Below are positions 1 through 52,458 of a DNA stretch of 53,826 nt, in pieces (the first letter of the stretch is position 1; every line of letters starts with the position of its first letter). Source of the DNA: a virus (Duplodnaviria; Heunggongvirae; Uroviricota; Caudoviricetes). The notes below the pieces were generated by a model. That model did not search any database and was not told where the DNA came from. It saw only the letters and a program-made list of their open reading frames with translations. The position numbers and the translations under genes are program-made. The stretch lies in the IMG/VR virus record IMGVR_UViG_2917855067_000007. One strand, given 5' to 3'.

Positions 1-270
1 TTAAAGACTGACCTGACCGATCCGGGCTTCGCCTGTGAACTTATCGCAAAGGCCAAGTACTTTGGCTTCTTCCAGAACGGCGGATATGTCTTCGCTGATA
101 TAGCTGAAAATATCTGGAATCCATAAAAGTGGCAGGCCGTTTATCTCACACTGACGGATCTGTAAATGCATCTGGAATGAAACATTCCTTGCGCGGTTGA
201 GTTTATGGAAGCACTCAAGGCTAAGATATTTTTCAGCACTATTAACAGCAATGGTATTCAAATCAGACAT
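1..270 (-). CDS. hypothetical protein, C-terminus cut by window edge
   Basis: ORF running off the window start; low-GC DNA (~36%); no recognisable domain. Confidence 0.3.
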   Translation of the reverse strand: MSDLNTIAVNSAEKYLSLECFHKLNRARNVSFQMHLQIRQCEINGLPLLWIPDIFSYISEDISAVLEEAKVLGLCDKFTGEARIGQVSL

Positions 271-357
271 ATATTTTCCTTACAGGGGCGTAATTACTCC
301 CCGTTAAAATACGGTTATAATTAAATGTTTTTCAGTTCTTATAAATCGATTATTGTT

Positions 358-765
358 TTAGTCGTCCCACATTTCATAGGGATCATAATCAACCATCTGC
401 ATTCGCATTTCATTAAAAATAATACTAATAATATCCCTGATATATTCAGCCAGTTCTTTTTCAATCCCCTTACTGATATCCTGACTTATCAGCCCGGCAG
501 TCAGGGAAAGCGCATGATAAATATTATCGACATTAAGAAATATAACCTCATCAGCGATTTTTATTTTACTCGACTGAATTGGGGGAATATCCCGCGACCG
601 TTTTTCAAATAAAACAACCAGATTTAATTGCAATAATCGACAATAAAGCCGCTGCTGCTTGATATCATTCATTGCAGGTAATGCATCCGCAAAAAATGAA
701 GCACCGTAAACCAGATCGTAAAAATGGCGGTCAACGTGAAACGGTGTGAGCATAATTTCAGACAT
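358..765 (-). CDS. hypothetical protein, 135 aa
   Basis: ORF in low-GC DNA; start overlaps upstream gene by 8 nt (operon-like); no recognisable domain. Confidence 0.4.
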   Translation of the reverse strand: MSEIMLTPFHVDRHFYDLVYGASFFADALPAMNDIKQQRLYCRLLQLNLVVLFEKRSRDIPPIQSSKIKIADEVIFLNVDNIYHALSLTAGLISQDISKGIEKELAEYIRDIISIIFNEMRMQMVDYDPYEMWDD

Positions 766-1183
766 GATCTACTCCCGCCTTAATACAAGGCTGTTTCAGA
801 TATCTGACAAGTAAATTAATCATGTCATGCAAAAGCCAGCGTAATTGTGTTTCAACGTCCATACGAAGGGAGCGACTAAGCAGCGCATCATTTAAGGCGG
901 TGCAATAGCCCGTCATGATCGTCGCGTCGATCCACTCATCAGGTACGCAGGGAGCAGGAATAGCAGTCGCGGTTAATTGCGCCTGGATATGCGATGGATA
1001 GTCTGTATCACAAAGAGATGAAAGAGAACGCAGGGCAAAAGCCAGACGTCCGCAAAGTGCGACGCGTTCAGTCTCGTCAACACAACTTTCATCCGTTAAC
1101 CGCGCGACAAAATGCCCGCACATCTCGCCAGCCTGAAAGAGATCCATAGACACTGGCAACGGTGAATTAAGCAGATTATGCAT
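758..1183 (-). CDS. hypothetical protein, 141 aa
   Basis: ORF overlapping both neighbours by 8 nt; Cys-rich; no recognisable domain. Confidence 0.4.
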   Translation of the reverse strand: MHNLLNSPLPVSMDLFQAGEMCGHFVARLTDESCVDETERVALCGRLAFALRSLSSLCDTDYPSHIQAQLTATAIPAPCVPDEWIDATIMTGYCTALNDALLSRSLRMDVETQLRWLLHDMINLLVRYLKQPCIKAGVDHV

Positions 1184-1424
1184 ACCGCGCCTCCGTTATC
1201 TGGTCTTTCAGGTCAGCAATTAAGCGGTTAAGCTCTTCCCGGCCATCGTCGTTCAGCGCGTCCAGTCCGTAGTCATAAGCGGCTAGAATAGCGACTTCCA
1301 TTTCACGGGAATCAATTTCAACCACTACTTTTGAACCCGGTTTAATAAAGGCTGGCGGATCGTAACAGTCATCGTGGAACGGGTTAAGCGCCGCCGCTTT
1401 ACGGTTGTCCAGTGGGTTAAACAT
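1176..1424 (-). CDS. hypothetical protein, ~82 aa
   Basis: ATG at 1422-1424 inside the longer ORF-track frame; follows the small gene at 1417-1620. Confidence 0.35.
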   Translation of the reverse strand: MFNPLDNRKAAALNPFHDDCYDPPAFIKPGSKVVVEIDSREMEVAILAAYDYGLDALNDDGREELNRLIADLKDQITEARYA

Positions 1425-1620
1425 GGCGCGCCTCCTGAACCGGCAGACAGCCAGCAAAGCAGAGGATAAAGCGACCGGCCAGCATGGAACGGGCTTCCTG
1501 TTCGCTGTACGCGGTGATTTGTTCGCGGTGTGGTTTGTCCTGCATGTCAGCCCTTGATACCGCAAGAAAGAGAAATACGCGATTTTTAGGGTGAGTTTGG
1601 TTACACTTCGGCTTAGCCAT
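1417..1620 (-). CDS. small regulatory protein, possibly Icd-like cell-division inhibitor of P4-like elements
   Basis: 67 aa ORF with ATG at 1618-1620, first gene of a minus-strand operon next to a divergent RHH gene; family assignment from memory only. Confidence 0.3.
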   Translation of the reverse strand: MAKPKCNQTHPKNRVFLFLAVSRADMQDKPHREQITAYSEQEARSMLAGRFILCFAGCLPVQEARHV

Positions 1621-1807
1621 AGCGTTAGTCCTGTTAACGTGTTGGTCAGAAGCCCGGTTAGTGTCCCCACACTGCCGGGCTTTACTTTACAGGTGTATGT
1701 CACCTTGCAAATCAATCCTACACGTATGGTGAAATACACTTCAAGTCTTTTTTTCTGTTTTTTTAGTTGCGTATACTGAAATACACCTATTCGAGTGGAG
1801 AACAGTA

Positions 1808-1993
1808 ATGGCAACAGGTGCGAAGAATGCAAAATCGCAAATGACCACCGTCAGAATCCCCCATGAGGTTATGGAGGATATAGAACAGTTAAAGGAAACT
1901 GGAGAAAGTACAGCCGGTTTCTTAGTAACTGCGGCAAAGGGTGAGATAAAGCGCCGCCAACGCCGTAAGAAACTGGACACGATAAAGGAATAA
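1808..1993 (+). CDS. ribbon-helix-helix (CopG/Arc-like) DNA-binding protein
   Basis: 61 aa, ATG at 1808 preceded by GGAGAA; basic C-terminus; divergent from the 1417-1620 operon. Confidence 0.45.
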   Translation: MATGAKNAKSQMTTVRIPHEVMEDIEQLKETGESTAGFLVTAAKGEIKRRQRRKKLDTIKE

Positions 1994-2164
1994 CCCCTTT
2001 TACGTCGTGTGGTTATGCTGGTAAGCATCGGTTGTATCCCGGTATAATTCATCGCGTAGAATCATCTTCCTGATAAACCCTCTCATCGTTTCTTGTTCGT
2101 TCCGGTGAGGGGGTTTTCTTTTATCTGGTCAACACTGTCAAAGCTGGCTGTACTGCAGCAGGTT

Positions 2165-3172
2165 TTAAACCAGCGTCACGGCGTTCTCATCGCTGGCCGC
2201 GTAAAGATAGCCATCCCCCAGCGCGTAACCTTCTTCACGTAAATAGCCATGCTCATAAACACCTCGTTGCGGGATATCCTCCGCGCGGTAGTGTTGGCTG
2301 TGTTTCAGCGTCAGGATCTGCAAATTTTTCAGCGTCGTAACAGCCAGGCGCTTACCCGGCATAAACGGCGGGATAAAGGCAAAACGACCGGCGACACTGC
2401 TTGTCAACATATCCCCCGCCGTCAGCGTCAGTGGTTGATCGGCCATGTTGAACAGTTTCAGGCGTTCGCGGGCGGCAAGCTGCGCGCCAACCATCACCAC
2501 AAGGCCCGGATCTTCGCGCTGACCTTCGGGGATTTTTGACGTGATGAGGCAATCAGCCAGATCGTGAACATCGGCAAAATCACCCCCTTTCCCCAGTGCG
2601 AAAGCATCAGAAATAATTTGTGAACCGTTATTGAATGTTTTTGCCAGCGAGTGCCAGCCAATATTGATATCTTCGCCGTTTTTATATTGTTCCGGGTTGG
2701 TATTTTCGGCAATCATCTTGCCGTTAAATCCAATACGGAGCATATCCCGCACCACGGCCTTCTTGAAAAAAATGATCATTTCATTACTGAAATTTTTCGC
2801 GTTTGCCATTACCGCCATTTCTTCATAAGTCAATGAGGCGCAGGAATCCGTTTCTGATAATAAAAAAGGTGTTCCGTTGGTTTTTAGTTTCTTATGAAAG
2901 CGACCTTCCTTTGCACGGCCTGTATAAAGGGAACCATCACCGATGGTGATCGTCGTGCCATCCGCACCGGTAATGTCCAGTAATGAAATATTATCAATCA
3001 GCCAGGACGAGCCTTTAACATCAAGCGTGGAACATCCCCATGCATCCGGAGATGCTTTTTCCGGCTGTGATATGGTGAAATACCCCGTATCTTCGTTTTT
3101 ATATTTAATATTAAAAGACTTAATCAGGTTTTCGTGATACTGCGTTAAATAATCTGGTGTTACATAAGACAT
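2165..3172 (-). CDS. P2-family (GpN-like) major capsid protein homolog
   Basis: 335 aa; conserved blocks GFNGK, GKGGDFADVHDLADC and EDPGLVVMVGAQLAA align to remembered P2 GpN motifs. Confidence 0.6.
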   Translation of the reverse strand: MSYVTPDYLTQYHENLIKSFNIKYKNEDTGYFTISQPEKASPDAWGCSTLDVKGSSWLIDNISLLDITGADGTTITIGDGSLYTGRAKEGRFHKKLKTNGTPFLLSETDSCASLTYEEMAVMANAKNFSNEMIIFFKKAVVRDMLRIGFNGKMIAENTNPEQYKNGEDINIGWHSLAKTFNNGSQIISDAFALGKGGDFADVHDLADCLITSKIPEGQREDPGLVVMVGAQLAARERLKLFNMADQPLTLTAGDMLTSSVAGRFAFIPPFMPGKRLAVTTLKNLQILTLKHSQHYRAEDIPQRGVYEHGYLREEGYALGDGYLYAASDENAVTLV

Positions 3173-3181
3173 AATTCTTCC

Positions 3182-4054
3182 TTAGTTGATATTTCTTTCT
3201 AATGTGAGTCGTTGCGCGCGCTGCTGGTGACGGATCGGCAACATATAATTTAAATATTCATCTGCACTCATCACCGTATGAATAAAGGCCATTTCAGAGC
3301 TGTAATAATCGCGTGATATTTCGGCGCGTTCCCGCTTATCTTCATTAAGAGGGTTAACAAAACGGGGATTAATGCTTCCTTCCGGGCGATATGTGCAGTT
3401 GTTCACCACCTTGTTAAGGGCAATCTCCAGTTTATCCATTTTCTGCCAGGCAAGGTCAGCACACTCAATTTCAGAAATCGCCTTTTTGAATGCCTTAGCA
3501 TCGAGGGATGACTTAGGCAGGGAACGGCGCAGATCGAGCAGTTCCACATCTTCCACGGCCAACAACACATCAATAACCGGCGCGAGCAATGCCAGAATGT
3601 TTTGTCTGATGGATAACTCTTCCTGCTGTGCCTTGACTTGATTTTTAATTGCTGCGTGATGCAGTCTGAATCTTTCATCTTCTAGTGATTTACGGGCCTG
3701 CTGTGCTTCTTTAATCGTCTGCGGCGCAGGAATTACAGCCGGGCTTGGCAGACGCTGCAATTCTGCTTCAAGTGCCGCCAGCTTTTCCCGTTCAGACTGG
3801 CAAAGTTCATGCCCTTTATTAACCAGTGTAAACAGTTCCTCTTTAGTCGCCGGAATGTCTACGCTTTCCCCGGAAATAGATTTATATTCGTGGGTAAGGT
3901 GCATCATTTTATTCAGGCGATAAAGTTCAATAACGCGCATTTCATACAAACCACGGTGACAACCGTCATAAGGCTGAATAAATGCCGTGTTATTAATGAC
4001 AGCAAGATCCGCATCACGATATACGCGATGGCTGATAATATCAGTAATGTTCAT
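3182..4054 (-). CDS. coiled-coil protein, putative capsid scaffold
   Basis: 290 aa immediately upstream of the capsid homolog; central helical region; no protease motif recognised, so GpO homology is not claimed. Confidence 0.35.
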   Translation of the reverse strand: MNITDIISHRVYRDADLAVINNTAFIQPYDGCHRGLYEMRVIELYRLNKMMHLTHEYKSISGESVDIPATKEELFTLVNKGHELCQSEREKLAALEAELQRLPSPAVIPAPQTIKEAQQARKSLEDERFRLHHAAIKNQVKAQQEELSIRQNILALLAPVIDVLLAVEDVELLDLRRSLPKSSLDAKAFKKAISEIECADLAWQKMDKLEIALNKVVNNCTYRPEGSINPRFVNPLNEDKRERAEISRDYYSSEMAFIHTVMSADEYLNYMLPIRHQQRAQRLTLERNIN

Positions 4055-4253
4055 TTAATTTTCCGTAAATTTTCGCCAGCAACAAATATATTAAACACTG
4101 CATAAACCGGCATTGCCTGGTATTTTGTAACCACTTAACCTAATACTGAATAAATACTGCCAACTCCCCATGCTACGAGTATTTACAACAAAAAGAATAC
4201 ACAAAATCCTTAGCATTCAAATAAATCATATTCATCTCTGAATAAAATCAGAT

Positions 4254-4493
4254 TTACACTTTGCGCTCTTTGATTTTGTTGTCGATCCAGTCGCTGATCT
4301 CACCCTCAACCCATGCGACAGAACGCGGGCCGGTTTTAATCGGCTTTGGAAAGACATTTGCATTGATATCTTTATAAATACTGGCGCGACACCGCCCCGT
4401 AAGCATCATAACTTCAGGCAGGCGGATCAATCTTTTTCCTTGGTTTAAAAGCTGCATTGCATCATTTCTCATATTCACACCCGCTATTAACAT
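4254..4493 (-). CDS. alpA: AlpA-family transcriptional regulator
   Basis: 79 aa; core LIRLPEVMMLTGRCRASIYKD...FPKPIK...GPRSVAWVEGEI matches the AlpA HTH family. Confidence 0.7.
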   Translation of the reverse strand: MLIAGVNMRNDAMQLLNQGKRLIRLPEVMMLTGRCRASIYKDINANVFPKPIKTGPRSVAWVEGEISDWIDNKIKERKV

Positions 4494-5042
4494 TCAAACG
4501 TTATGTAATATCTTTCTATATACAGACATTGACTTTATAGGATGCCTGTAGATTGGATGAAGTCATTGTTATTCACGCCATAAGTGCATGTCAAAAAGAT
4601 GTATGTGGGATGTGGGGCTTGACTTTTAGTTAAGTCAATTTAAGCCTCAGGAAGACTCTAGAAGCCTCTGAAAGGATTTATGGTTTGAGTGAAATCAATT
4701 AGCCAGATATAAAGACACTAAAAATCAAACAAACAACAACAAAAATGAAATAAAAATAAAACACAATAAAAACAGATTTTAGCAAAAAGTGCCAACTATA
4801 TAATGTTAATTCCTATAAATAAGATTTTTATAAATTAACACCATAAAAACAACAATCAAGAGCACAATTAATAATCAAAAAAAGAAATATTTCATATTAA
4901 TCAATAGATTAGTAATCTTGGTGTTTTTTATAAAATTTCCAAAATCATAATTCATTGAAAATGATAATAAAAAGTTTAAGCGTGGATGCTGAGTGTCCAC
5001 GCCTAACATCTAATTTAGCGGTATTCCCGTCTTAGACCTTCT

Positions 5043-6233
5043 CTAATCTTTTACCCTGCCACTCGCCAGCGATTCCATATAGTCGGCATACCATTGAAGC
5101 ATTTCCCGGCGTCCATCCAGATAGCGGGCATGATTATATGTGCCACGGATGGTATTTTTATCAACATGTGCAAGCTGGGTTTCGATCCATTCGGTGTTAT
5201 ACCCTTTCTCATACAAAATTGTGCTCATGGTATGTCGGAAACCATGCCCGCAAGCTTTGCCCTTATACCCGAGTCGCTTTATTAGCTGATTAATTGCTCC
5301 TTCACTCATTGGCTTTCGCGGGTCGTTCCGGCCCGGAAAAATGAAAGGATTGCGGCCCGACAACTCTTTTAATTGCCCGAGAATAACCATAGCCTGGCGA
5401 GAAAGCGGGACAACGTGCGGACGTCTTTTCTTCATTCGCTCTTTGGGGATCTCCCACAAGGCATTATCAAAATCAATCTCTGACCACGGGGCCGCGCGTA
5501 ATTCAACCGGACGTAACCCCACAAGAATAAGCAGACGCAGCCCCAAAATAACCTGAACGTTACTTTTTGCCGTCGCCAGCGTCTGGAAAAATTCGGGTAA
5601 CTCTTCGGCTTCCAGATGGGGGAAGTGCTCCCCTTCGTGTCCTTCCATAGCCACAGATAGATCAGGGGCGGGGTTATATTCTGCGCGGGCGGTAACGATC
5701 GCATACTTCCAGACCTCCCCGCACCACTGGCGAACCTTACGGGCCTTTTCAGTCGCTCCCCTATTCTCGATGCGTTTAAGCGTATTCAGCAAATCAAGGG
5801 GCTTTATTTCCGTGATGGGGCGTTTTCCAATCCAAGGGAATATGTCTTTACTGAATGCTTCCAGAATGTCCGAGGCGTACCCCTCAGACCATTTCTTCTG
5901 CCGTTCTGTATGCCACTCTCTGGCGATTTCTTCGAAGGTGTTTTTGATTTGCGCTTCGCGGTTCAATTTTTCTTCCCGCTTCGCTTCGTTCGGGTCGATC
6001 CCCCCAGCCATACCCCTTTTGGCCTCATCTCGTTTCGCCCTGGCATCAGCCAGGGTTACATCGGGATATACCCCCAGCGCCAACAGCTTTTCTTTTCCGG
6101 CTACCCGGTACTTTAAACGCCAGTACCGGGAACCATTGGGATTAACAAGCAGATAAAGCCCACCACCATCGGCCAGTTTATAGGGTTTTTCTTTCGGTTT
6201 GGCCGTATCGACCTGACGGGCATTTAGTTTCAT
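5043..6233 (-). CDS. int: tyrosine integrase, P4-type
   Basis: ATG at 6231-6233 (MKLNARQVDTAKPKEKPYKLADGGGLYLLV); C-terminal R/H/Y catalytic region (HGFRHT); 140 bp from the att repeat. Confidence 0.85.
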   Translation of the reverse strand: MKLNARQVDTAKPKEKPYKLADGGGLYLLVNPNGSRYWRLKYRVAGKEKLLALGVYPDVTLADARAKRDEAKRGMAGGIDPNEAKREEKLNREAQIKNTFEEIAREWHTERQKKWSEGYASDILEAFSKDIFPWIGKRPITEIKPLDLLNTLKRIENRGATEKARKVRQWCGEVWKYAIVTARAEYNPAPDLSVAMEGHEGEHFPHLEAEELPEFFQTLATAKSNVQVILGLRLLILVGLRPVELRAAPWSEIDFDNALWEIPKERMKKRRPHVVPLSRQAMVILGQLKELSGRNPFIFPGRNDPRKPMSEGAINQLIKRLGYKGKACGHGFRHTMSTILYEKGYNTEWIETQLAHVDKNTIRGTYNHARYLDGRREMLQWYADYMESLASGRVKD

Positions 6234-6395
6234 TTGGGGGTATCTCCAGTAGCCCACACAGCATATACCCCCGAATATCCCCCCAAAAGACGTGGATTTT
6301 AGGAGATATTGATAGACGTTAAAACACTATCGGGGGCGCTCAAAGCTAGAGTATATGCGGGTTTGTTGGATTTTAATAGACGGGAAAAGACGTTG

Positions 6396-6444
6396 AAATG
6401 GTGCCGATAATAGGAGTCGAACCTACGACCTTCGCATTACGAAT
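6396..6444. repeat. attL core: 49 bp copy of the thrW 3' end
   Basis: identical to 52380-52428 by direct comparison. Confidence 0.85.
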
Positions 6445-6825
6445 TATAAGAATCCACTTCTAATTCAAAGCATTACCACATCAACACTGCGCTCACACGT
6501 CCCACCACGTCAAAACATGTAAAGCCTTGCAAGCCATTGCGAGGCCTTATGTGTCTCAGTTTTGTCCCACCTTGTATTATGACTTGCATAGCCAATGAAG
6601 ATAAACGTGACGACAAACGGCGCAGCAGTCTTCTTTTCTTTCACACTTTCCCACCCAGCATGCATACCTTTCTGTCATAACTGAAGTGAATGTCTGTTAT
6701 GAGTTATGAGCTGTAAGTTCAACGGGTCGATGCAACACTATCCTTAATCAAGGGGGGGAGACTGCCATGAAACGAAGAACACGAATTAAATCCAGTGTGT
6801 CTACCGACCCCGGTATGTTAAGGCA

Positions 6826-7155
6826 TTAGCGTTTTCTGATTTCAGTGATGTAGGTAATGGCAGCATGTTCAACAAAATTGGACACGTCGTCATAGGCTTC
6901 TTTACCGACGGGCGAATTGAATGCCGCAATAGCGTCTTCAAGCGAGTCGAACCACAGTTCGGAGAAACCGTCGACGGGGGAATCGGGATATTTTTCCCGA
7001 TCGATGGGGTTGAGTACATAACCTCTTAAGCCGGGGAGTCTGAGCGCTATCGCTGTATGTACCTCATCCCAGTATTTAACAAAATCGTCGAAGCTCTGTC
7101 CTTTTTTACGGGTAAGAAAGCCCACATGTTTGAAGCCGTTAGCAGGTGACATCAT
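6826..7155 (-). CDS. EthD-family protein
   Basis: 109 aa; EthD-like motifs; divergent from the LysR gene. Confidence 0.5.
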   Translation of the reverse strand: MMSPANGFKHVGFLTRKKGQSFDDFVKYWDEVHTAIALRLPGLRGYVLNPIDREKYPDSPVDGFSELWFDSLEDAIAAFNSPVGKEAYDDVSNFVEHAAITYITEIRKR

Positions 7156-7380
7156 ATTTTCCTCTGTATTAATTCATGTTTTTGTAAAACTGGCCGGCGC
7201 AATCCGGCATCGTCTTGCAACTTCGATGAAGCGTAATAGAGAAGGTGAATATGGCTGTTTTTCTTCGTGCGATAAAGACGCTTTCAATCGTCTCTGAGTA
7301 GACATAGATTCTACAAATGGTTTTCAATTTATTGTAAAATGAATCTATATATACAGAGCTAATAACTCTCACAGGCAATT

Positions 7381-8292
7381 ATGAGAAGAACAGATCATCT
7401 ACGTGGAATTACGGCTTTTATTGCCACAGCCCAGCAGGGGAGTTTTACGGCAGCAGCGGAAAAGCTGGGACTGACAAAGTCGGCCGTAGGAAAAAGCGTC
7501 AGTCGCCTGGAAGACCGCCTCGGGCTGAAGCTTTTTCAACGTTCCACCCGGCGGTTGAGCCTGACGCCGGATGGTGAGCGTTTTCTTACCAGCTGCCAGA
7601 GCGCAATAGATATCCTGGAGCAGGCAGAGGCGGAACTGACGTCACATACCTGCCAGCCATCCGGGCGCCTGCGGGTAGATTTACCCGCAGCCTTCGGACG
7701 ACAGCGCATCCTTCCTATCCTGCTTGATATCACCCGACGCTACCCCGAACTGGCATTGACCGTTACGTTCAGCGAGCGGTTCGTTGACCTGATTGATGAG
7801 GGGCTCGATCTTGTCGTTCGCATTGGTGAGCTGTCAGACAGCAGCGGACTGGTTGCCAGAAGGTTGACAACCCAGAAGCTGGTGATCTGCGCCTCTCCAG
7901 ATTATCTGTTCAACCACGGAGAGCCTGTCAGTATCGATGACCTGAATCACCATCAGTGCGTTGTCGGCTTTCGCCGTAACCAGCCTGTTTCGTGGTTGCT
8001 GAAAGAGGGGGGTGGTCAAATCAGCCGCTTTGTCCCTCCGCCGACCCATGAGTTTGCCGACGGCGACGCAATGCTCGCAGCTACCCTGGCTGGAGGGGGA
8101 TTGTCCCAACTCCCCCTCTGGTTGGTGGGCAGATATCTCGACGAGGGTAAATTGCGGGAAGTGCTGCCCGGACACTCCGGCGGGGAGATGCCTATCAGCG
8201 CGCTGTGGCCAAAAAGCCGCCAGCTACTCCCCAAAATCCGCTATGTAGTGGATACCCTGGTCAGAGCTGCGGAAGACGGCCTGCTTGATTAA
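7381..8292 (+). CDS. LysR-family transcriptional regulator
   Basis: 303 aa; N-terminal HTH (ITAFIATAQQGSFTAAAEKLGLTKSAVGKSVSRLE) and LysR substrate-binding domain. Confidence 0.85.
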   Translation: MRRTDHLRGITAFIATAQQGSFTAAAEKLGLTKSAVGKSVSRLEDRLGLKLFQRSTRRLSLTPDGERFLTSCQSAIDILEQAEAELTSHTCQPSGRLRVDLPAAFGRQRILPILLDITRRYPELALTVTFSERFVDLIDEGLDLVVRIGELSDSSGLVARRLTTQKLVICASPDYLFNHGEPVSIDDLNHHQCVVGFRRNQPVSWLLKEGGGQISRFVPPPTHEFADGDAMLAATLAGGGLSQLPLWLVGRYLDEGKLREVLPGHSGGEMPISALWPKSRQLLPKIRYVVDTLVRAAEDGLLD

Positions 8293-9402
8293 TTATTCCC
8301 TGCTATCGGACCAGAAGGGGTAATCCGTATAGCCTTTTTCATCTCCGCCATACATCGTTGCCCGGTTAACGTCATTCAACGGCCAGTCGTTAACCATACG
8401 TTCCACAAGATCCGGGTTCGCAATGTAAGGCCGACCAAAACCAATCAGGTCAGCCTTCCCCTCCTGGAGATACGCTTCGGCACGCTGCTTATCAAAGCCA
8501 CCGGCAATAATCAAAGGCCCGGAATAGGCTGCACGAAATTTTTCAATAAACCCGGCAGGGATGGCCTGTTCTCCCAGTGTTTGCTGGTCGCTCAGATGAA
8601 CATACGAGAGAGAACGGGCGCTGAGTTTATCTGCAAGCATCAGCCAGGTTTCTTCCTCGCCATCAAAAGGATGCATGTCAAACAGACGCCCGAAAGGAGC
8701 CAGACGTATACCTGTTTTACCTGAGCCGATGGCCGTAGAGATTGCGTCAGTCACTTCCAGAACAAAGCGCAGGCGATTGTCAGTATCCGCGCCACCGTAC
8801 TCATCCTGACGAGTATTCAGCCCACCATTAATAAACTGCTCAAGCAGATAGCCATTGGCGGCGTGGATCTCAACACCATCAAAGCCCGCACGGACAGCAT
8901 TTTTAGCGGCCTGAACGTAATCCTGCACCACGGTTTTAATCTCGGGGATCGACAGCGCACGGGGTTCCGATACCGGAACCGGACCGGGTTTGCCGTTTTC
9001 GTCGCGTGCGTAACAGGTGGAATTATTGGCTTTAACCGCTACCGAACTAACGGGGGCCTGCCCATTAGCCTGCAAACTTGTGTGAGAAATTCGGCCGACG
9101 TGCCAAAGCTGAATATAAATTTTTCCGCCAGCGTCGTGCACCGCTTTTGTAACTTTTCCCCATCCCTGCACCTGAGCATCGCTGTAGATTCCTGGAGTGA
9201 AAAGATAACCCTGTCCCTGGACGGAGATTTGCGATCCCTCCGTAATAATGAGCCCTGCGGATGCGCGCTGCTGATAATATTTTGCGGTCAGCCCATCTGG
9301 AGTATCGCCTGATATTGCCCGTGAACGGGTCATTGGTGCCATAACGACGCGATTTGCCAAATCGGTGTCACCGGCCTGAAATGGGGTAAATAATTTTTCC
9401 AT
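8293..9402 (-). CDS. NADH:flavin oxidoreductase, Old Yellow Enzyme family (NemA-like alkene reductase)
   Basis: ATG at 9400-9402 with AAGGAGA upstream; OYE TIM-barrel motifs. Confidence 0.85.
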   Translation of the reverse strand: MEKLFTPFQAGDTDLANRVVMAPMTRSRAISGDTPDGLTAKYYQQRASAGLIITEGSQISVQGQGYLFTPGIYSDAQVQGWGKVTKAVHDAGGKIYIQLWHVGRISHTSLQANGQAPVSSVAVKANNSTCYARDENGKPGPVPVSEPRALSIPEIKTVVQDYVQAAKNAVRAGFDGVEIHAANGYLLEQFINGGLNTRQDEYGGADTDNRLRFVLEVTDAISTAIGSGKTGIRLAPFGRLFDMHPFDGEEETWLMLADKLSARSLSYVHLSDQQTLGEQAIPAGFIEKFRAAYSGPLIIAGGFDKQRAEAYLQEGKADLIGFGRPYIANPDLVERMVNDWPLNDVNRATMYGGDEKGYTDYPFWSDSRE

Positions 9403-9782
9403 TTTTATCTCCTTTACTGAAGGAAATATGATGGTCCCAACGATGTAATAAAAAAACACTACTCTGGTCCGAACAGAGTAGACATAATTTCTACATTTAG
9501 TGTTCTCTCGGTATTAAGTCGTCATATTTTGGTTTTTAGGTGATGTCTCACGTAGAGATAAAGCCTGCCGTAAAATTGATGAAGACTCAGTATGTCCGCT
9601 TCTGGCACACAAGCGACATCCAAGCCTCTCCGGCCAGGGCATGAAGGGGCGCCAGTTCATAGACGGTGCAGTGATTCTGTCCAGTGCTGGCATTCCGCAA
9701 GCTGCAGCTGCGCGGCAAGCCTGAAACTTTACGCTCGATGCGCCGGTGAACACGGCCCGTAGCTGGCATCTTTACACATAAC

Positions 9783-52379: not shown

Positions 52380-52428
52380 AAATGGTGCCGATAATAGGAG
52401 TCGAACCTACGACCTTCGCATTACGAAT
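52380..52428. repeat. attR core within thrW
   Basis: 49 bp identical to 6396-6444. Confidence 0.85.
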
Positions 52429-52458
52429 GCGCTGCTCTACCAACTGAGCTATATCGGC
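52383..52458 (-). tRNA. thrW: tRNA-Thr (anticodon CGU)
   Basis: reverse complement gccgatatagctcagttggtagagcagcgcattcgtaatgcgaaggtcgtaggttcgactcctattatcggcacca; cloverleaf with CGT anticodon and CCA end. Confidence 0.9.

Follow-up and report, generated by a model that had tools for sequence, protein, structure and literature searches.

In the satellite P4, the left (early) operon is made up of a cI/Icd-like open reading frame (ORF), epsilon, orf151, cnr and alpha. The epsilon protein neutralises the helper phage's repressor, and the Cnr protein (ORF106, DUF5375) is a copy-number regulator that binds alpha; among the proteins of P4-like satellites, epsilon is, to our knowledge, the only one known to act on the helper's repressor. 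Operons opened by an Icd-type gene have also been studied in P1, whose immI region is arranged as c4-icd-ant1/2 and whose Ant protein binds the C1 repressor (PMC8198154), and in N15, in which the Icd-like gene 32 is followed by gp31 and then by the anti-repressor gp30. In all the studied operons of this kind (P1, N15 and P4), the overlapping downstream genes are antirepressors. P4-like satellites are present in about half of the Escherichia coli genomes, and in 90% of the canonical elements cnr lies between epsilon and alpha (PMC8628076). Their core set, as defined by Moura de Sousa and Rocha, comprises int, psu, delta, sid and alpA as well as epsilon and alpha, and a defence hotspot has been described near cos, between int and psu (PMC8628076, PMC9122126). 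The present analysis concerns positions 1-1993 of a DNA of 53,826 nucleotides (nt) from a virus of the Caudoviricetes (IMG/VR record IMGVR_UViG_2917855067_000007), the whole of which is called the window below. From its anatomy, this segment can be identified with high confidence as the early (left) operon of a P4-type satellite together with its control region. When this anatomy is taken together with the function that we propose for the middle genes of the operon, the whole explanation is plausible but falls somewhat short of an even chance.

The early operon and its junctions

The features of the segment are the following (aa, amino acids; pI, isoelectric point; GC, guanine plus cytosine):

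1-270, minus strand: epsilon homologue (PF25738), 89 aa, complete, with its stop at nt 1-3.
271-357, minus strand: AT-rich spacer of 87 nt that contains a small G+C hairpin (~283-303) and epsilon's Shine-Dalgarno sequence.
358-765, minus strand: copy 2 of family A (defined below), 135 aa, pI 4.8; a low-GC, fast-evolving paralogue.
758-1183, minus strand: copy 1 of family A, 141 aa, pI 5.0, 7 Cys, predicted to form four helices.
1176-1424, minus strand: 82-aa acidic protein, pI 4.4, starting at an internal ATG of a longer TTG ORF.
1417-1620, minus strand: Icd-like leader ORF (NF033153), 67 aa, first gene of the predicted coupled chain.
1723-1739 and 1770-1786, minus strand: two 17-nt direct repeats (GTGTATTTCAnnATACG) in the intergenic region 1621-1807.
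1808-1993, plus strand: divergent small regulator of the YlcI/YnfO family, 61 aa (NF041551, 64.7 bits against a cut-off of 30; phrog_949).

An earlier reading of this DNA, made from the letters only (hereafter the sequence-only reading), had described a tightly linked chain of genes with 8-nt overlaps at each junction, a partial last gene and no recognisable domain, and had placed it in the accessory, cargo-bearing part of a satellite-like island. The island is indeed satellite-like (int, AlpA, Icd-like, epsilon, alpha and Ogr/Delta genes are present) and the operon is tightly linked by three 8-nt overlaps, which join the 67-, 82-, 141- and 135-aa genes. The last gene, on the other hand, stands behind an 87-nt spacer and is not partial but complete. 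Nor is the locus an accessory region: it corresponds to the left (early) operon of P4, with the Icd-like leader ORF on one side and epsilon-alpha on the other.

Both ends of the chain belong to described families. The gene at 1417-1620 falls in the Icd-like family of NCBIfam (NF033153, 64.9 bits against a cut-off of 25, E = 5e-18), shares 38% identity with the P4 'cI' ORF, in the C-terminal part of the latter, and also matches N15 gene 32 and PY54 icd. The gene at 1-270 falls in the epsilon/Derepression family (PF25738, 78.6 bits against a gathering threshold of 27, E = 3e-22) and is 44.7% identical to P4 epsilon (E = 4e-12), which makes it a homologue of this helper derepression protein. In near-identical elements the alpha primase-helicase (DUF927) comes after epsilon, and a scan of the genome collection with epsilon returned one locus only. 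As a separate observation, the Pfam family Phage_ASH (PF10554) matches aa 22-85 of the old P4 'cI' ORF (L002, 8330-8521; related loci are designated here by L numbers), which overlaps the C4/CI RNA gene (8420-8507); in other elements its matches include gene calls extended through the C4/CI RNA. What this family models may be, for the most part, a translated non-coding RNA gene.

The three overlaps are stop/start junctions of the form ATGnnTRA located at 1417-1424, 1176-1183 and 758-765 (ATGTTTAA, ATGCATAA and ATGTCTGA), each with GGAGG or GGGAG 6-7 nt upstream. There is no overlap between the epsilon and 135-aa genes, and epsilon, which follows the spacer, has a Shine-Dalgarno sequence of its own. 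The complete junction (GGAGG, 6-7 nt, ATGnnTRA) was found in 22 instances across nine elements. P4 is one of them: its epsilon follows the Icd-like (cI) ORF with the same 8-nt overlap, and a second overlap joins epsilon and orf151. This recurrence indicates that the junction is a feature of the element family and not the result of chance. In the upstream frame it reads ..E-A-x-H-x-stop; since it fixes the final codons of the upstream gene, unrelated proteins end in the same residues. We infer that the junction would serve to couple translation from gene to gene and would be the likely site of cassette exchange as well.

The sequence-only reading had also noticed a compositional shift at ~760. 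There is a break, from 51% GC at 766-1620 to 36% at 271-765, and it coincides with the junction between the 141- and 135-aa genes, but it does not extend to all the downstream DNA. The low-GC tract is one gene (135 aa, 38%; 37% at third codon positions, GC3) and its spacer (271-357, 29%), and GC recovers to 43% in epsilon (1-270). Family A genes in the examined loci have 49-60% GC, except for the 135-type genes (38% in the window, 36% in L018) and a Cronobacter copy (38%). As the orthologue of L018 is also GC-poor, this composition is a lasting trait of the 135-type lineage and not the sign of a recent insertion in this strain. The spacer before epsilon can be aligned with conserved counterparts in L018, L004 and L003, and the gene before it in L003 is unrelated. 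The spacer hairpin (~283-303) is not followed by a T-run. The spacer may act as an internal promoter, or as a site of processing or binding; a weak match to a promoter is found nearby, at 377-349.

The resemblance to the P4 left operon thus includes the same end genes (Icd-like, epsilon and alpha), the 8-nt ATGnnTRA overlaps and the same orientation relative to AlpA and int. Yet, in P4 epsilon is coupled directly to the Icd-like ORF, whereas in the window three cassettes stand between them and epsilon is uncoupled behind the conserved spacer. The window also differs in having no homologue of orf151 or cnr, and neither the C4/CI antisense RNA nor the isrK leader, in whose place there is the divergent YlcI/YnfO gene. 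P1 immI (c4-icd-ant1/2) and N15 (cA-icd-antA/B-antC) share with the window a repressor-controlled operon that starts with an Icd-type small ORF followed by overlapping genes (PMC8198154). The characterised downstream members of the P1 and N15 operons are antirepressors. Contrary to them, the 82-, 141- and 135-aa proteins have no sequence similarity to Ant or AntC, the control element of the window appears to be a protein and not an antisense RNA, and the operon runs on into the primase.

The cassette array and family A

The genes that follow the Icd-like position in the window and in related elements are, in lengths of the encoded proteins (aa):

Window: Icd, 82, 141, 135.
L018 (7149-8408; same kind of element, beside proA): Icd, 140, 82, 135; two cassettes swapped with respect to window 358-1620, with all the 8-nt junctions kept.
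L003 (E. coli): Icd, 69, 149, 159.
L022: Icd, 84, 63, 64, 77.
L005: three other small ORFs.
L015 and L016 (Salmonella; AlpA-AntA-primase, no epsilon): an unannotated 65-68-aa ORF where Icd lies elsewhere, followed by family A and further small ORFs.
L006 (capsid-encoding island): Icd-like, followed by four small, unrelated ORFs.

The three middle genes of the window appear from these comparisons to be interchangeable cassettes, for which relatives hold other or reordered genes with the same junction. The array is uncommon: of 5426 complete E. coli genomes, 3 have it. The 82-aa protein is 82% identical to the product of the 84-aa gene that follows Icd in the satellite L022, and 61% identical (E = 5e-34) to that of a 78-aa gene of a P2-like prophage (L023, E. 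coli 40EC). The latter homologue (5979-6215) stands in the early operon of the prophage, between the first early gene and fil and upstream of the replication endonuclease. The 82-aa protein is thus common to satellites and a helper-type phage; no match to it was found among 50,697 phage records. A 139-aa gene upstream of its homologue in L023 was also compared with family A and does not belong to it.

We define family A by the motifs DLFxxAD-C, ALCGRL, DLPPxL, YCxALT and LxGLLxDLV..LKxPRF, a length of ~135-190 aa and four predicted helices. The 141-aa protein has these motifs and the 135-aa protein has diverged forms of them (LYCRLL, SLTAGL). In agreement with the sequence-only reading, neither these two proteins nor their relatives had any match in profile searches of Pfam, PHROGs, NCBIfam, PADLOC or the PDB. 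Word-indexed searches of 5.8 billion proteins returned only 3-4 clusters per protein, from E. coli and Salmonella, and an exhaustive HMMER search of 1.84 billion representatives returned 37 family A clusters. The named sources of these clusters are Salmonella, Leclercia, Buttiauxella and Cronobacter, and all are labelled hypothetical. Together with E. coli and a single copy on a Pantoea plasmid, this places every named source of family A in the Enterobacterales.

The relationship between the 141- and 135-aa proteins becomes visible through an intermediate. A first hhalign comparison of the 141-type and 135-type alignments was not significant (E = 0.29). In L003, a 149-aa gene takes the same position; its product shares 37% identity with the 141-aa protein (E = 7e-26) and 29% with the 135-aa protein (E = 3e-10). 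With all 135-type sequences kept out, a profile detects the 135-aa protein at E = 1.5e-8 (unrelated controls, 0.008 or worse), and the reverse profile recovers the 149-aa type at ~E = 1e-14. This bridge protein and the independent profiles argue that the two genes are diverged tandem paralogues, and the sequence evidence assigns them to a previously undescribed acidic family. AlphaFold2 models of both proteins are of low confidence (predicted local distance difference test, pLDDT, 55 and 59, respectively). In the two models, four long helices follow one another in a matching order, with a disordered linker in the middle, which agrees with the paralogy; as fold matches they have only generic helical bundles. 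Remote homology and structure prediction, which had been proposed as the way to identify these proteins, thus yielded no known relative and low-confidence four-helix models.

The genes of the chain have evolved at different rates. Between the window and L018, the ratio of non-synonymous to synonymous rates (dN/dS) is 0.08 for the 82-aa gene, 0.15 for the 141-aa gene and 0.26 for epsilon. The 135-aa proteins of both elements are 52% identical, with a proportion of non-synonymous differences (pN) of 0.31 and a saturated proportion of synonymous differences (pS) of 0.76. The dN of the 135-aa gene is 0.40, versus 0.12-0.18 for its neighbours, i.e. it is about three times faster at non-synonymous sites. 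Its length is nevertheless exactly 135 aa in the five clusters of this type that were found (5/5), down to 51% identity.

In L016, L013, L015, L018 and L003, family A comes after the Icd-like gene or follows the C4/CI RNA directly, as it does in L013, and in intact elements it is always upstream of the DUF927/Toprim primase in the same operon. Solitary copies were also found: one lies directly upstream of DarT-DarG, on the same strand and with a 13-nt gap (L017, 8001-10175); another is divergent from an OLD-like DUF2813/AAA_15 gene (L011, 4622-7567); a third adjoins HicB beside ogr on the Pantoea plasmid, which has P2-like tail genes (L025, 4596-5453); and a further one adjoins a gene for a large unknown protein. 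Some members (Salmonella clusters P0030, P0033, P0035 and P0038, and L016 5948-6529) are fused at their C-terminus to a module of the form LPxVRR..LDPFxLALYRERREML..AGVxYVEAxHA. In L003, this module has a 69-aa gene to itself upstream of family A and is seen again at the N-terminus of the 159-aa protein. Matches of Phage_ASH to family members were rejected, as they come from fused or extended calls through the C4/CI RNA and not from family A itself.

Control region and backbone of the element

The YlcI/YnfO protein is probably the repressor of the leftward operon. The 17-nt repeats have only these two matches in the 53.8-kb window (0.06 expected), and the same motif is present in the equivalent intergenic region of L006, which has the YlcI module too; they are operator-like and may be regarded as candidate operators. 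Positions 1-6500 of the window gave no Rfam match up to E = 1, neither to the C4/CI RNA (RF01695) or isrK (RF01394) nor to any other family, and no C4 match was found in L018, L006 or L015 either. The same Rfam library detects C4 in P4, L022, L005, L016 and L013, and the isrK leader in P4, L005 and L022. In those elements the C4/CI RNA sits upstream of the Icd-like gene or of family A, and in the window, L018 and L006 the divergent YlcI/YnfO gene is found instead. This distribution suggests that a protein repressor replaced the RNA-based immunity. The folding of the leader (1400-1760) is unremarkable (z-score -0.55).

A chromosomal island of E. coli JNEC-KY203 (L001) matches positions 1-6300 of the window with 99.7% identity. 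The sequences diverge past ~nt 6300, and this island was dropped as a guide to the remainder of the window. Read leftward, the gene order is int, AlpA, a 290-aa protein, a capsid-like protein, the YlcI/YnfO gene and the five-gene chain. The backbone features beyond the segment are:

5043-6257: integrase (int), from the ORF call with annotation and scans.
4254-4493: AlpA (PF05930).
3182-4054, minus strand: 290-aa protein without known domain, which precedes the capsid-like gene in the leftward reading.
2165-3172, minus strand: diverged P2-family major-capsid-like protein (PF05125, E = 1e-54; TIGR01551, 156 bits, under the cut-off of 220).

In L001, the genes past epsilon, which are off the window, are alpha (a DUF927 primase-helicase), another integrase-like gene, which is short, Ogr/Delta and YefM/YoeB. 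The recognisable cargo of the element is YefM/YoeB, located beyond delta and outside the window. The co-location of int, AlpA, epsilon, alpha and delta (alpha and Ogr/Delta being read in L001) agrees with the P4-like core set, but no Psu or Sid match was found between int and alpha with Pfam and PHROGs. Where canonical P4-like elements have sid-delta-psu, this one has the 290-aa protein and, unlike P4, the P2-family capsid-like protein. By the core-set criteria, the element is an incomplete, atypical P4-like variant.

As for the surroundings, EthD, LysR-family and flavin-oxidoreductase genes lie to the right of the satellite integrase (~6800-9460), and a lambdoid prophage with gpJ, tape measure, terminase and portal genes lies at ~10500-34000. 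The sole tRNA of the window is a tRNA-Thr (52383-52458); the L003 satellite, which is of the same type, directly adjoins tRNA-Thr and proA, and L018 directly adjoins proA. No P2-like helper was seen in the examined part of the window.

Possible functions of the cassette proteins

Several scenarios may explain the maintenance of these small genes between the Icd-like ORF and epsilon. We tentatively propose that the cassette proteins are protein-binding antagonists of helper or host regulators, a role suggested by their position. According to this proposal, the divergent YlcI/YnfO regulator and the two operator-like repeats would control the leftward operon. The operon would open with the Icd-like leader ORF, and translation would pass across the three small acidic genes by way of the overlaps and their Shine-Dalgarno sequences; the conserved 87-nt spacer, epsilon and, off the window, the alpha primase would follow. 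Upon derepression of the satellite, the cassette proteins would, in the manner of P1 Ant, N15 AntC and P4 epsilon, neutralise helper-phage or host regulators by binding to them, and the fast-evolving second copy of family A would widen or change the range of targets. The antagonist role is proposed for the cassettes since Ant, AntC and epsilon occupy the same place after icd, and the small, acidic and, in the models, helical character of the cassette proteins fits it.

Several points weigh against this proposal. No antirepressor, epsilon and Ant included, was found to resemble the cassette proteins, and family A has no profile similarity to P4 epsilon or orf151. The proposed function would follow from position and general properties only, the roles of the junctions in coupling and of the repeats as operators are themselves predicted, and the models (pLDDT 55-59) match generic helical bundles only. 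L015 and L016 encode an AntA-domain protein and the window has epsilon, so that further antirepressors may be redundant. Finally, the solitary family A genes found beside DarT-DarG, the OLD-like ATPase and HicB, without a satellite backbone, would fit a host-beneficial or defence-related role at least equally well.

The latter observation leads to the interpretation favored by the sequence-only reading, namely that the 141- and 135-aa proteins, and perhaps the 82-aa protein, are defence or anti-defence cargo that would protect the host or the satellite from other phages, or inhibit host defence early after induction. Besides the solitary relatives adjoining DarT-DarG (L017), the OLD-like DUF2813/AAA_15 gene (L011) and HicB (L025), this interpretation can draw on the variability of the interval and the rarity of the array (3/5426 genomes), on the atypical GC of one gene and on the small size and acidity of the proteins, which many anti-defence proteins share. 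As in the hotspots of P4-like elements, variable genes occupy a fixed position in an otherwise conserved backbone (PMC9122126; PMC13586616). Nevertheless, the array is inside the early operon, outside the hotspots described for these elements (PMC8628076, PMC9122126), and its genes are much smaller, form a chain that is predicted to be translationally coupled and have no known defence domains. None of the ten window proteins matched PADLOC-DB 2.0, and the 22 family A members that were scanned gave a single weak match at chance level (E = 0.0023), which leaves the defence reading unsupported for the 141- and 135-aa proteins. Known anti-defence systems were not detected in thousands of P4-like satellites, although novel ones would escape such a search (PMC13586616). 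In intact elements, moreover, family A is fixed beside Icd and the primase, which is a backbone-like behaviour. Homology to ordinary genes of P4- or P2-like elements, which by the sequence-only reading's own standard would count against this interpretation, was found for the Icd-like protein, epsilon and the 82-aa protein (through its homologue in the P2-like prophage), but not for the 141- and 135-aa proteins. On balance, a defence or anti-defence role appears doubtful.

Alternatively, family A could modulate the alpha primase-helicase as Cnr does in P4, and set the copy number after induction. Like Cnr, family A proteins are small, predicted to be helical and encoded upstream of alpha in the same operon; in intact elements they always precede the DUF927/Toprim primase, and these elements are without cnr (DUF5375) between epsilon and alpha. 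A kinship with Cnr was suspected from the C-terminal LxGL...LKxP but was rejected, as deeper profiles gave hhalign E-values of 0.09-0.34 and DUF5375 had no match among 39 family A members at E<=1. Family A is also on the other side of epsilon with respect to cnr. In addition, L005 and L022, which have no family A, are without cnr too, so that the absence of cnr is not correlated with the presence of family A, and solitary copies of family A persist with no primase nearby. We thus consider a role in replication control improbable. That the ORFs are non-functional, as decaying remnants or annotation artefacts of a cryptic element, could be suspected from their few homologues, absence of domains and low structure confidence, but is very hard to reconcile with the purifying selection (dN/dS 0.08 and 0.15 for the 82- and 141-aa genes), the exact 135-aa length in five clusters down to 51% identity, the intact Shine-Dalgarno/start/stop junctions in E. 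coli and in the L018 element, and the 37 family A clusters with conserved motifs.

The antagonist proposal can be embedded in a broader and, as a whole, unlikely scenario. In it, P4-type and related AlpA-primase satellites would have a third variable locus, so far unrecognised, in the interval from Icd to epsilon or the primase: translationally chained small cassettes, swapped and reordered through recombination at a ~20-nt universal junction. In that case, family A would represent a new class of helper-specific antirepressors or anti-defence proteins, whose tandem, rapidly diverging copies set which helpers the satellite awakens or survives.

The P4-type early operon was already known; what is new is its shuffled cassette array, in which translation is predicted to be chained from gene to gene, and which includes an undescribed protein family. 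If the cassettes are merely dispensable early genes, the outcome is a routine refinement of the annotation, in which two "unknowns" out of five turn out to be ordinary genes of P4 and no defence island is present. The conserved junction suggests a simple route for swapping small genes while keeping their translational linkage, and a P4-type satellite that itself encodes a capsid-protein homologue may have a different way of redirecting capsid size. If, on the other hand, the cassette proteins do antagonise helper or host regulators, they would shed light on helper range and on the satellite-phage arms race, and would add a small new protein family.

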